From Phoronis australis (Eukaryota; Animalia; Phoronida): DNA of 64,000 bases. How positions within the stretch are numbered: the first letter of the stretch is position 1; each line of letters begins with the position of its first letter. A program made the position numbers and the translations under genes. Below are positions 13,601 to 19,600 of the stretch, piece by piece. The notes under the pieces were generated by a model. It ran no database searches. It was not told the origin of the DNA and saw nothing but the letters and a program-made list of their open reading frames with translations. The stretch lies in NCBI GenBank assembly GCA_002633005.1, contig NMRA01000012.1:759115-823114 (forward strand), given 5' to 3'.

Positions 13601-16600
13601 GTCAGACGTCCAGGCTAACAATGAACACAAAATTAACTGTTGACTCAGCCAGCGCCACCATTAACCTGTATCTGTTAACCTTCTTCTTGGTAAAAGACTT
13701 ACAAATTGTCAAACCTGTGACAGACTGAAGTTACCAAAAGCTAATGTAAAATTGCCTTTTTATACATCTTGTTTCATTTGTTCAAAACAAAATTTTTGCA
13801 ACACAGTGCAGAATTTAAGATTAATTAGCCTCAAGGCACATGAACTGCCCAGTAACCCAATAAGTATCAGTATACAAGAGAATTTGGTGGAGACATCTGT
13901 TGTCAACATCACACAGAAACACCTGTTGTCAACATCACACAGAGACATCTGTTGTCAACATCACAAAGAATAACAGTTGTATCTTAGACTTCGCAGGTTT
14001 ATTGATAATCTGATGAATAGTGTATAATTTGTAGAAAGGTAGCACCACAATTTGCAGAAAGTATAAATAAAGCAAGAACATCATAGTGCATTGCTGATGA
14101 ATGCAATGCATGGCATGTGTTGATTCTAGAAAATACGAAAGACAAACTAGAAAAAAATGGAAAACCACAATAAAGAATCGATACTTTCAAATGAGCTACT
14201 AAGTTATTGGAGAGATTATGAGCCTACAAATTTGAAAAAAAATGCAATGGCTTGGGTCACAACAGGTCAGCTAAACCAACAAGAGCAACGCAAAGTATTG
14301 AAATGTGCCCATGGCAGCAATGCAAACAGTATGCCTCTAGGGATGTTTATATTTAGTGTGTGTCAAAATGAACACTACATGGTGCAGGATACATCAAATC
14401 CATCCCAAAAAGATGCTATTGGCATCATAACAGAAACTTGTTTGTCACGTTTCAATGAAAACTCTCAATGAGCTCTGAAGATACAGATGCAAACTAAGGT
14501 AAAAATTAAAATTGCTACTACGGCGTGTAGCAGTAGACAGAACCATCCAAAAGTCATAGGTAGCCATAGTCAATTTTATTACATAAATTCTAATTGCAAA
14601 ATTTCACAAAGATCCTTCAAAGAAATAAGGACACAAAACTAATGAAGCAAAAAAGACAAAAATCGCCACCAGGATGCATCAAGATTATTACATCCGTCTA
14701 TAAATCAACGTCTTCTCATCAAGACCAAAAACCAGGACTCAAAAAAATAAAAATGGCCACTAGGTGGTGATAATATACATCAAATCCATACATAAATAGA
14801 CCATCTTCACCTACATATAGAACTCTATTTGCCAAATTTCATCGTTGAACTCCGAAAGTACACACTTGGACAACTAAAACTGCCACTAGGGGGCACTGTG
14901 GTAGTCCAATGGGTCTGCTCGTGTGATAAAATGCTGACAGCTCCATAGGACCATGTTCGCCAAAATTCACAAAAATCCTACAAAAGGTGAAAAAGACACA
15001 GCCGTAGACGGAGAAAATGCCCCTAGGGGGTGCCAAAGTAGTGAAACCTGTCCAAATTTCAATGTCAGCCATAGCTCCCTCATTAAAAACACATCTGTCA
15101 ATTTTTGCAGCAATCCTCCGAGTAGAGAGATAAGATAGAGAGGCAGACGTCAAAAAGTGGACTCAAAATCCCCAACTATCAGGCGCAGAATACGTAAAAT
15201 CCACCTGAAAATGAAAAGACATTGTTGTCACCTTAATAAAAATCTATTTGCCAAGTTTCATGAAAATCAATGAACTCTGAAGGTACAGAGGAAAAAGTAA
15301 AAAATAAAATTGCTACTAGAGGGCACATCAATTGTCGGATTGGGCTAAAACTAGTCATCTGTTGCCAACTCCATAGGAACACATCTGCCAAATTTTACAA
15401 AGTTCCTGCAAATGGTTTAGGAGATACAACCGTGGCCGCAAAATGAAACAAAATACCCACTAGGGGATACCAGGGTAGTCAAACATGCCTGAAAATCAAT
15501 ATCAAGCAGTCTTCGCATAAAAAACACACCTGCCAATTTTAATAATGATCCTTCAAGCAGTTTGGCAGACAGAGGTGGACACAAAAAATGGACTCGAATA
15601 TTTAAAAAATGACTACTTTGTGGCACAGAATCATCCAAAACCTCCAAAAATGTAAAGGTGCCATCGCCTTCATACTAGAAACTTATTTGCCAAATTTCAC
15701 GAAAATTCATCCAAGCATTACGAAGATACAGAGGCAACCGTGAAAAACTTAAGTTGTCACTATGGGGCACAGCAGTAGTCGGATTGGTCCAAAAATCCTC
15801 CTCATATGTCGTCTGCTTCATAGGAACACACCTGTCAAATCTCATTAAGATCCTGCAAGGGATTTAGGAGATTGAGCTGCGGACGCCAGATGCCCAAACA
15901 GAGATGACAGCAATATGCACCAACATAAATATGTGGGCGCACAAAATTAAAATTAAATGAGGATCATCACAGTCAAGAAATTATACACCAGCATAATTAT
16001 CCAATGATTGAATGTAATGCCCAACTCAGACAAACCTTGATGCCATTTGCTTTAACTAAAAATGATAAGGTAATTAGAGTCGAAATTGTGATTCAAAACA
16101 GCATTAATAACAATAATAATTACACATTAACTAGTGTTTCAGATAAATGGCATGGCTAGTAGTAAGGATACTACAACTTGGGGACTAGCGAGCCTAGAAA
16201 GCACTACGGAGATTAGCTTGTGCAGAGAACTATGTCTGACAATGATCTCAGAACAGCAAGGTATAAGTCACCTAGCTTATTTGCGAATTAAAGCACAGCT
16301 GTGATGGAAAGCCGCCAGTGCACCAAGCTCATGATATACCTGGGTTCCCGTGAGCTAATACAGATAATATAATTGAGCTCATGGCTGATGACCTGGCAGA
16401 GACCTGAACAGTATCATTCCAACACTGAAAGGGTTATACAATTAGAAAGGAGAAATATAAGCAATTAACAAAGAGCAATTAATGCCAAAAAGTAAAATCT
16501 CACCAATCTAGGACACAATATGGTAATCAATGAAATTTCATTTTTCATATTTTCCAAGTGAACTATAGGTAACACCGAATGTTTACATTTAACATGTAAA

Positions 16601-19600
16601 AGTGCATCTGTACCATAGCCGTACCAACAGCCAATAAATTGAGAAATTATTGGCATTCACAACATTATTAGTAGCCTATAAAAATGAAGACTTGGTGAAA
16701 TTTTACCATAGAAAGGACAACATTGAATCCACACTGTGCAAATTAATTGACTCTTAATCTTAAAATGCGCAATCTTACTATTAGTGGGGTTGTACTTATG
16801 GTGGTGGTAGTTGTTAGGACAGTGTTGGAAGAGGTTGTTGCCATGGTAATAATAGTGATGGTTTTGTGATGGTTACTACCCGGATGTAATAAGAGAGCCT
16901 TGATTCAAGGATAGGGTATAATATTTATGTCAAACTTTCAATACCACATTGTTAACACAGAGAATAGATCCATATTTAATCATATGGCAAGTTGCAATTT
17001 GCAAAATTTTCAAAATGTCACAGGGAAGTCTCAATTGTCTTAAGCTTTTTTGGTACTTTTTGCATGTATTGCTTTTCTCACATATGTGAGACACAAAATT
17101 TGTGAGTGATAACCATGAATTAATGTTATACTTCGGAAAAAAATAACGACCACTTGATATAGCATAAAATAACCGTAAACCCAGCAAAACACTAAGAGCC
17201 TGCTCGACTCAAATTTATCACATTTTCATTACAGAATTCTTAAAATGTCAAAAATGTCACAGAATGTCAGGCAAGCATGTTTGTCACAGAATGTCACCAT
17301 GTCACAGGGAATTCATTCTCCATTAAAACCACCAGATCACAACAGTCCATCGTTACATTCTCACAAACCTGCTGAAAGTAACTGGTCGAGAATGCCTATT
17401 GTGATGATCGTAGTCATGATAGCGGTAGTGGTAGTGACGAAAAGCACTAGTGAGACAATTAACAGCACAACTAAAACAGTTGTATGTGGATTGTGTTTTG
17501 TTAGAAAAGTGAAGGAATCGTGTAATGCAAGATGCAATGAAATAGGCTTCATACCCCCTACTGCAAAATGACTCATATCTAAATGTGTGATAACGACCAT
17601 GACAATAACATACATACTGATGACAAATGAAGATAAAAATCTGGCAGCCATGAGAACATTGGCAGGACTAATTTCATTATTTGTTGTTCAAAGAATGTTT
17701 TGTAAGTCACTGAGTATAAAGTGCTTTAAATAAGGGTAGATCTCAGGCACACATTTGGGCACACGAGCCTCCACGTATCAAACCATTATCTAAGATCCAC
17801 TTTACAAACACCTATATTTCGACTTTGGGTGGAATGCGTTATAAAACGGTGATGCGACATTCACTTGGTGGCACTAATGAAGAAATAGAGAATCCTACAT
17901 GAGTCTCAAGTTTATGACATGGGCAAAACCTCTTGGAAATTTCATCAAGAGGTTTTGCCCATGCCATAAATCTGAGATGAGTGTAGGATTTGTTTTCTCA
18001 CATCAATCATAAAAACAGTCTTTTTTGCCAAAAAAATCAACGTGTCTAAAATTTTCAACCACATGACAATGTAAGGCATATGGATTTCTACTGTGCACTA
18101 CTTTGTGATTCACCCATGTAATATCAAAAAATTAAGTACTCAGTGTCATTAGCCAGTTGTGTCATAACACATTCCAGGTCATGTGAGAAAAGCCCTTTTT
18201 AACACCAGAAAGCAGTTCACCAGCATGGGGACTTCTATAAGTTACGGGTCCCATGTAACAACCTGAAAGCATGCATTGTCTCACTAGTGCCACCTGGTGA
18301 ATTCATTTTCAAGTTCGCCATCGTCACCTAAAATATTGTGAAAAGCGTGTTTTATTTACTGCTTCAGTGCATTCACGAGATACAGTATCATAGTTTAGGA
18401 ATAAATTGGTTTGAATTATCGAAACAGCTTTTTCAATGCATTAGTCACATAGTCATAAAGAAATTGATGTCTATTGTCAACTACCAGGCACCTAGTCTAA
18501 AAAATTCATTAAACTCTGTCTGCACATGACTTTCTCAGTTAGCTCCAGTGACTGAGTGACATGTGGTCAGGACTGATTGATACAAACATTAACAACCCTA
18601 AAATCTCATTCCAAGTCGTATTTGGAGGTGAAAAATATCCATGATGCATCAGTTTTACAGTATTCACTACAAAGCCTGTATCATTGCTTGGTACATTGTC
18701 ACACACCTACACAGAGTTAGTTAACAGTCACACCACGATATAAAAACATGCAACGACAACCAGTTACCATATTTTCCCTCAGCCAACGTGGAGACAAGAA
18801 CGGTAGCCAAGACCCCTGACCGGGTCGTGTTGATGGCAGTGTCAGTCCAGCACTAACGAAAACAGCGACAAGTCTAACTTCACACAACCGTTCACAACAA
18901 GTGAGACTAAACAAAATTGCATGTTACTCTGTCAGTAAATTTTTGAATTTTCAGGAAAAAATGTACAACCGGCAATATTTTAAAATCCAAAAATTGGGAG
19001 ATAATGAAACCCAGAGCAACTTTACCAAGAAATCATCCCACTCAAATATGGAACAAATATTCTGGCTTTCCTGATGATTTTAGATCAAAGAAATGGGTTG
19101 AAACTCAGAACAGAGTTCTAAGAATATGATAATTAGATGAGAGGGTGTGCGTTGTAATCTTAATTAACCTTAAATACTGTTGGTGATGACTAATTACCTG
19201 ATAGTAATTAGGAAAGTTCTTTGTGATCTCCTCATATTGTTCTTGAGCTGTTGGTCGTTCAGCGATGCTGTAGGTTTTCAGAAATTCTTCCCACTTTTTC
19301 GTTTTTTCGTAAGAACGATATCGTACCTAGAAGATGGATGAGTTCAATTCAGGTACAGGTATGCTTGCCAACACAGTTATTGTTCGTGTGAAACTGTAAC
19401 ATGAACATACATCAACTGGCATTACTACAGCACAGACATTCCTTCAGTGTCCCGAGGGAGAGTCCACCAAATTCAAGGTATTTGAATAGATAACCACCAC
19501 GTCACAAGTAATAAAACTGTTAGCGAGTAAAATATTTTAAATTTTATTCGACAGGCCACAACTCACCTAAAATGAAATCTTACCAATTTGAGACAAGATA

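Follow-up and report, generated by a model that had tools for sequence, protein, structure and literature searches.

Exchange of duplicated exons within one enzyme is familiar from PKM1 and PKM2, where duplicated exons of a kinase are swapped and the swap affects allostery and oligomer state. Tandem-exon substitution as such is a known class of splicing (PMC9741552). In Sterolibacterium, a kinase and a lyase together dehydrate 25-hydroxysteroids, spending ATP (PMC8449060, PMC11061730). Here, we describe a gene of the phoronid Phoronis australis that encodes a dikinase of the rifampin phosphotransferase (RPH) and PigC type and carries exon 25 in two versions. The gene lies on the minus strand of a 64,000-nucleotide stretch (assembly GCA_002633005.1, contig NMRA01000012.1, positions 759,115 to 823,114), which we call the window and number from its first letter. 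The explanation that we favour, with slightly better than even confidence, is an old duplication that produced mutually exclusive exons, whose alternate use would swap a helix predicted at the acceptor pocket of an RPH-type dikinase fused to a putative phosphate-eliminating lyase.

Two versions of exon 25

The gene was modelled manually from splice signals and homologs as 36 exons encoding 1,329 amino acids (aa). The junctions 20101/20475, 20570/21528, 13614/18768, and 18852/19198 were seen in RNA, and all others are predicted from sequence. A sequence-only reading of the window had placed two exons of 85 nucleotides (nt), each with AG/GT ends and an open frame, between exon 24, which ends at 19198 in phase 0, and exon 26, which starts at 13614 and needs phase 1. 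Both exons are present as described, with the peptides given for them; the flanking phases were confirmed, and the exon numbering agrees with our 36-exon model. Exons 25a and 25b are separated by 2,343 nt, belong to the GT-AG type, and are open in frame 0. Their splice sites are ordinary for the gene, with donors of a and b that beat 13 and 10 of 32 and acceptors that beat 16 of 33 each.

The reading frame permits only one of the two exons per productive transcript. Either a or b alone gives the open 1,329-aa protein; inclusion of both leads to a stop after 967 aa and skipping of both to a stop after 947 aa, in agreement with the earlier claim that both or neither breaks the frame. These premature stops are followed by 11 (both included) and 10 (both skipped) junctions lying more than 50 nt downstream.

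The pair is not a product of chance, because a family profile built from 139 homolog segments, with the window's own left out, ranked b first (38.6 bits) and a second (32.6 bits) among 127,828 six-frame windows, far above the next (6.7 bits). Among 34 exons scanned, only exon 25 is found a second time in the window (45.9 bits, as compared to 12.5 for the best other match of any exon). The exon pair is real, and it is probably functional.

Judging from the sequences, the tandem duplication is old, since a and b have only 44 of 85 nt (52%) in common and their intron flanks are no more similar than shuffled sequence. The encoded segments are identical at 10 of 28 residues, a divergence comparable to that between homologs of different phyla (mean 30%). 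Synonymous sites are near saturation (pS 0.66 vs pN 0.43; dS about 1.6, dN about 0.63; noisy values from 28 codons). When neutral decay was simulated with substitutions only, 0.6–0.9% of copies kept their splice sites, an open frame, and a family-like score at 0.2 changes per site, and none of 20,000 remained intact and family-like at 0.8 per site. Both exons are intact and family-like and neutral decay is fast in simulation; therefore, both copies look selected until recently. The divergence, the family fit, and the simulated decay all support the earlier suggestion of selection on both copies.

An ancient tandem duplication would thus have left two intact exons of which the frame allows one. 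On the simplest account, the choice between them would be made by splice factors, and frameshifted forms would be removed by nonsense-mediated decay. We infer the removal of wrong products because no support was found for U12 sites, for a docking hairpin, or, with 2.3 kb between the exons, for steric exclusion. Neither exon has a donor that fits the U12 consensus, and none of 47 inverted pairs was clearly positioned as a docking or selector element for competing RNA pairing. In duplex tests of the flanks, one of ten beat its null, namely the pairing of the upstream with the downstream flank of b (-24.7, where the lowest of 12 shuffles reached -22.8), and we did not count it.

A dikinase joined to a lyase-like domain

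The homologs of this gene are animal proteins whose annotations read rifampicin phosphotransferase-like, PigC-like, or YvkC-like. They come from molluscs, annelids, nemerteans, echinoderms, amphioxus, lamprey, sharks, and chelicerates, and the best are 47–48% identical, so that the homolog search yielded no close relative. A word-index protein search with one exon gave no match; a HMMER search did find homologs. In the tree, the gene falls among spiralian-like sequences with weak support.

The order of ATP-grasp, central acceptor domain, and C-terminal His-swivel is that of RPH/PigC-type dikinases. RPH residues K22, R117, T136, and E297 are matched by positions 448, 549, 568, and 733 of the window protein, and R666/E667/K670 and H825 by 1119/1120/1123 and 1282. 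The domain order and the retained catalytic residues confirm the earlier assignment to this type, and on their basis we infer ATP-dependent phosphotransfer through phospho-His H1282. By score, the animal family is neither rifampin phosphotransferase proper (NF041857; the homologs P0203 and P0157 score 398 and 393 vs a cut-off of 999) nor PigC (NF052631; 327 and 320 vs 1300), and RPH Q336/Q337 align to G/E in the animal family, so the rifampin-contact residues are not kept.

The sequence-only reading missed the resemblance of the N-terminal domain to 25-phosphosteroid lyase (25-PSL), which, on the comparisons given here, alters the likely reaction. We modelled the barrel fold on a standalone member from Glandiceps (P0034, pLDDT 93.6) rather than on the window protein. 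Its top Foldseek match is 25-PSL (E 3e-14; Z 22, rmsd 3.8–4.0, 272 aligned residues), and a sequence profile of the N-domain family also matches 25-PSL (E 8.5e-5). The two have the motifs D-x-x-Y-F, Q-x-G, R-D-x-S-x-G, and G-x-x-E-F in common, and the window protein keeps them, including RDHSFG. The D of R-D-x-S-x-G is presumably catalytic, since it is replaced by N in the ligand-complex entry 9g4c. It is worth mentioning that standalone genes of about 420 aa for the lyase-like domain, with N-terminal helices, also occur in animals (Glandiceps and Tubulanus; P0034, P0059, and similar proteins).

A scan of metagenomes gave 67 loci. Of 31 intronless kinase open reading frames (ORFs) of about 800 aa, 27 had at least 1.1 kb of upstream sequence. 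In 20 of these 27 loci, some of them near-duplicates, a separate DUF7065/7064 gene lies directly 5' of the RPH-like kinase gene. These intronless loci are probably bacterial, and by sequence the animal gene is a fused form of the two-gene cassette. No common pathway genes were found around the cassettes among the 43 of 116 neighbouring ORFs scanned, and the neighbourhoods are unrelated. Four further loci (L009, L010, L012, and L040) are intronless, have 61–63% GC, and encode a fused lyase-plus-kinase protein with long insertions.

In the reaction that we propose, ATP would phosphorylate H1282, the swivel domain would deliver the phosphate to a hydroxyl held by the middle domain, and the N-terminal barrel would eliminate the phosphate, leaving a C=C bond. 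In sum, ATP would drive the loss of water from an alcohol, probably a lipophilic one, at a membrane. The lipophilic class of substrate is a guess, made because of the 25-PSL match and the hydrophobic N-terminus, and we regard the kinase-then-lyase cascade as evenly balanced between true and false.

Several results weigh against the cascade. By VIA-align, AttH, pericyclases, and kievitone hydratase match the barrel as well as 25-PSL does or better (Z 21.9–25.6), just 78 of the 150 full-length proteins have R-D-x-S-x-G, and one bacterial neighbour protein searched alone gave no match to 25-PSL. The barrel might instead be a binding module, a hydratase, or a cyclase, and the protein a plain small-molecule kinase or a PigC-like ligase. 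This alternative is doubtful, yet it is the one with the most in its favour, as the fold is common to those other proteins at similar Z and many of the animal proteins have changes in the motif. However, 25-PSL is the only one of these proteins that is also matched by sequence and the one with the highest identity to the barrel (18–19% vs 7–11% for the others). Moreover, the window protein has an intact motif, as do the bacterial neighbours, where R-D-H is kept in 15–17 of 17 proteins.

Position of the exon 25 segment

The earlier proposal that the segment belongs to the acceptor-binding domain was borne out. In a model of the oyster homolog P0157 (27 sequences, pLDDT 80.6), whose closest structure is RPH 5hv1 (E 1e-41, Z 38.4), it forms most of one helix (617–646). 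The Listeria rph locus served as the RPH reference, and 22 of 22 residue numbers checked were reproduced. Profile-profile alignment of the middle domains (probability 98.6–99.5) places exon 25 on RPH-Lm residues of about 477–505 with its W on L478, that is, on rifampin-contact residues in a low-confidence register. RPH L478 and F479 touch rifampin, and residues 428–505 are part of the apex, the least conserved subdomain, according to PMC4844700.

The rate of change points in the same direction. The first 16 residues of the segment evolve at 2.6 times the protein mean in 13 paralog pairs (98th percentile) and at 0.67 times the mean in 12 ortholog pairs (34th percentile), a contrast with p 0.002 by pair and 0.015 by lineage. 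Such a segment, conserved among orthologs and divergent among paralogs, behaves as specificity sites would. We consider it likely, from the models, that the segment lines the acceptor pocket. The swap of a for b would then alter a pocket helix and give two acceptor preferences, and the chance that the isoforms indeed differ in substrate preference appears about even.

On the other side of the balance, the per-column confidence of the RPH register is low (1–5), with a 5-residue gap inside the exon. The ortholog and paralog labels are our own, based on the names of the sources, and the pairs are not fully independent, some having a sequence in common. At 7 of the 8 positions that vary most among paralogs, a and b carry different residues, but with 18 of 28 residues different overall such a count is within chance (p 0.12). 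Both exons could be used with a swap that tunes rate, affinity, stability, or swivel docking on the same substrate. W2, T5, R11, and S12 are common to a and b, and most human tandem-exon substitutions are conservative (PMC9741552), both of which fit such tuning. We nevertheless think it unlikely, in view of the ortholog-conserved and paralog-divergent character of the segment and of the change from N to V at position 8.

Transcript evidence

Three stranded RNA runs carrying the same species label (X1–X3) were used, 18–19% of each being read, and a junction was reported only if a single run supplied at least 3 reads with 2 different starts. Exon a is spliced into mRNA on both sides: the junction to exon 26 (13614/18768) has 2, 0, and 7 reads in X1, X2, and X3, and that from exon 24 (18852/19198) has 2, 4, and 0, which makes 15 reads in total, with CT..AC ends at both. 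Of the four junctions proposed as a check by the sequence-only reading, the two of exon a were thus seen, and neither of the two of exon b was among those reported.

For exon b, the evidence is of read depth. The 199-nt bin 16236–16434, which holds b, has a depth of 1.61, 0, and 2.12 in X1, X2, and X3, all of it on the RNA strand, and the next bin down has no depth in any of the three. These depths correspond to about 320 read bases in X1 and 420–790 in X3, or, over the 85 nt, to about 3.8x in X1 and 5–9x in X3, as compared to 2.5–15x for constitutive exons. We consider it likely that exon b is used in transcripts. Weighing against its use, none of the 6 joints reported in X1–X3 involves b, X2 shows no depth on it, and the depth alone is weak evidence because introns elsewhere carry similar sense-strand depth from repeats or unspliced RNA. 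No joint between a and b or between exons 24 and 26 was among the 6 either, at this low depth, and a run of contigs (X4) contained no reported piece on exon 25a or 25b. In mapping at 90% likeness, repeat-derived reads dominated and masked 56 joints. The intron between 25b and 26 holds a degenerate repeat array (14430–15900, spacing about 145 nt) that attracts many reads from other loci.

These data allow the view that exon b was once functional and is now silent or noise, the gene making isoform a only, with 15 junction reads for a, none reported for b in three runs, and zero depth in X2. We judge it improbable. Exon b fits the family better than a and has average splice sites, and neutral decay would erase these features fast; moreover, there are the read bases in its bin, and junctions of a also go unreported in single runs (24-a has none in X3).

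Distribution of the pair

The same 85-nt, phase 0-to-1 exon is found in seven intron-containing metagenome loci and, on that account, is an old unit. The earlier reading had proposed a check in related genomes, and the distant loci and isoform sets covered here weigh against our own reading: a second copy is absent from all three loci that span exons 24–26 (L025, L046, and L059, all distant), and each of the 15 non-amphioxus annotated isoform sets has a single version of the segment. As far as these loci and isoform sets go, the exon pair seems to be lineage-restricted. Isoforms X1–X5 of Branchiostoma lanceolatum were considered as the same exon swap and rejected, since they differ across many exons; they look like tandem paralogs merged in annotation (P0213, P0298, P0302, P0308, and P0310). 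The differences among them peak in the exon-25 helix.

That the second exon is an assembly fault, the other haplotype, or a paralog fragment, or that each allele has one fixed exon, is highly improbable in spite of the tandem paralogs that are common in the family and that amphioxus annotations appear to merge, because exon 25 alone is doubled, its flanks are unrelated, and 52% identity is not allelic divergence.

Gene organization and neighbouring features

The coordinates of the gene and its parts, together with the cassette loci, are collected in Table 1. A candidate exon at 32042–31960 was discarded, as its inclusion breaks the frame. A GC-AG intron (AG/gcaagt) at 26648/26647, predicted from sequence, is required for the open frame. 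A 73-nt tandem repeat of 3.9 copies (20515–20795) covers the start of exon 22, so that the acceptor is repeated inside the intron; the last of these copies, at 20571, is the one used in RNA. On the plus strand, intron 2 contains a retroelement-like ORF fragment (40869–41396) with a weak Integrase_H2C2 match (E 0.019). Also on the plus strand, a short-chain dehydrogenase gene (top NCBIfam match PRK08278) runs from about 48930, head to head with the dikinase gene and about 2.8 kb from its start codon; we presume that it resembles HSDL2.

Table 1. Features of the dikinase gene in the window and of related two-gene loci.
Feature	Position or loci	Strand	Remarks
Whole coding gene	5344..46082	-	Hydrophobic N-terminus, DUF7065/7064, ATP-grasp, acceptor domain, His-swivel; coding from 46082 to 5344
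25-PSL-like double beta-barrel exons (DUF7065/DUF7064)	31364..38053	-	RDHSFG in exon 34772-34607
ATP-grasp (PPDK_N) exons	22777..30123	-	K448, R549, T568, E733
Exon 24	19198..19326	-	3' boundary in phase 0
Exon 25a	18768..18852	-	85 nt, phase 0 to 1; residues 937-965 of the 1,329-aa model
Exon 25b	16340..16424	-	85 nt, phase 0 to 1; homologous alternative to 25a
Exon 26	13526..13614	-	Needs phase 1; aligned with RPH stretch containing T523
R-E-x-x-K exon	10001..10064	-	R1119, E1120, K1123 = RPH R666/E667/K670
His-swivel exons	5344..7627	-	Catalytic H1282 (predicted)
Two-gene cassette loci	L032-L039, L042, L043, L060, L061, L063, L065-L069, L071, L072		DUF7065/7064 gene, R-D-H intact

Comparison with known systems

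The family is widespread in animals and is named solely by its likeness to bacterial enzymes. From the lyase-like domain and the two-gene cassette of bacteria, a reaction that can be put to the test follows for DUF7064/7065 and the rest of the family. Isoforms with a single predicted pocket helix exchanged between them would point to specificity sites and offer a built-in control for substrate screens. As a wider and rather unlikely proposal, spiralians to sharks and some bacteria may share a two-step, oxygen-free dehydrating enzyme composed of a dikinase and a 25-PSL-like domain, in which the helix was diversified by gene duplication elsewhere and by splicing here; if true, the splice swap would be a natural matched pair for finding substrates. 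In the literature outside subscription journals and supplements, we found no paper on the animal family, the exon pair, or the coupling of lyase and dikinase, although one shrimp paper contains a single mention of YvkC-like; the paper behind the 25-PSL structures may already discuss the last.

With Sterolibacterium 25-PSL (PDB 9fzn, 9g2i, and 9g4c), the animal N-domain has the same double beta-barrel and motifs in common. The kinase differs: 25-HSK is a separate 43-kDa ATP-to-ADP kinase for which PMC8449060 reports that no phospho-enzyme was detected, whereas in the family described here the lyase-like domain goes with a His-swivel dikinase, as one fused protein in animals and as neighbouring genes in bacteria. 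By the same source, 25-HSK is not RPH-like, a point against the parallel that we draw. The animal proteins share with RPH-Lm, PigC/HapC, and HpeHI the domain order and the catalytic K, R, T, E, R-E-K, and H (PMC4844700, PMC13534948, PMC12167813), but they fall far below the family cut-offs, are without the rifampin-contact residues, and carry about 420 extra N-terminal residues.

As regards the exons, the PKM swap takes place in another fold, while that of 25a and 25b is predicted in the acceptor cleft. In KHK-A and KHK-C, duplicated exons are swapped within a kinase (PMC2651755), the fold again differing from that of the dikinase. The coq-2 exons 6a and 6e are homologous internal exons of equal length (134 nt, not a multiple of three) that reshape the core of an invertebrate enzyme and change the substrate it uses; that pair is conserved across several phyla and was genetically tested (PMC7434440), whereas the exon 25 pair is seen in one genome. 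Because substrate-switching exclusive exons are known from coq-2, the splicing is not a new principle. What we describe adds an uncharacterised enzyme to the examples of an established splicing type, and its nearer precedents are coq-2 6a/6e and KHK-A/C rather than PKM.

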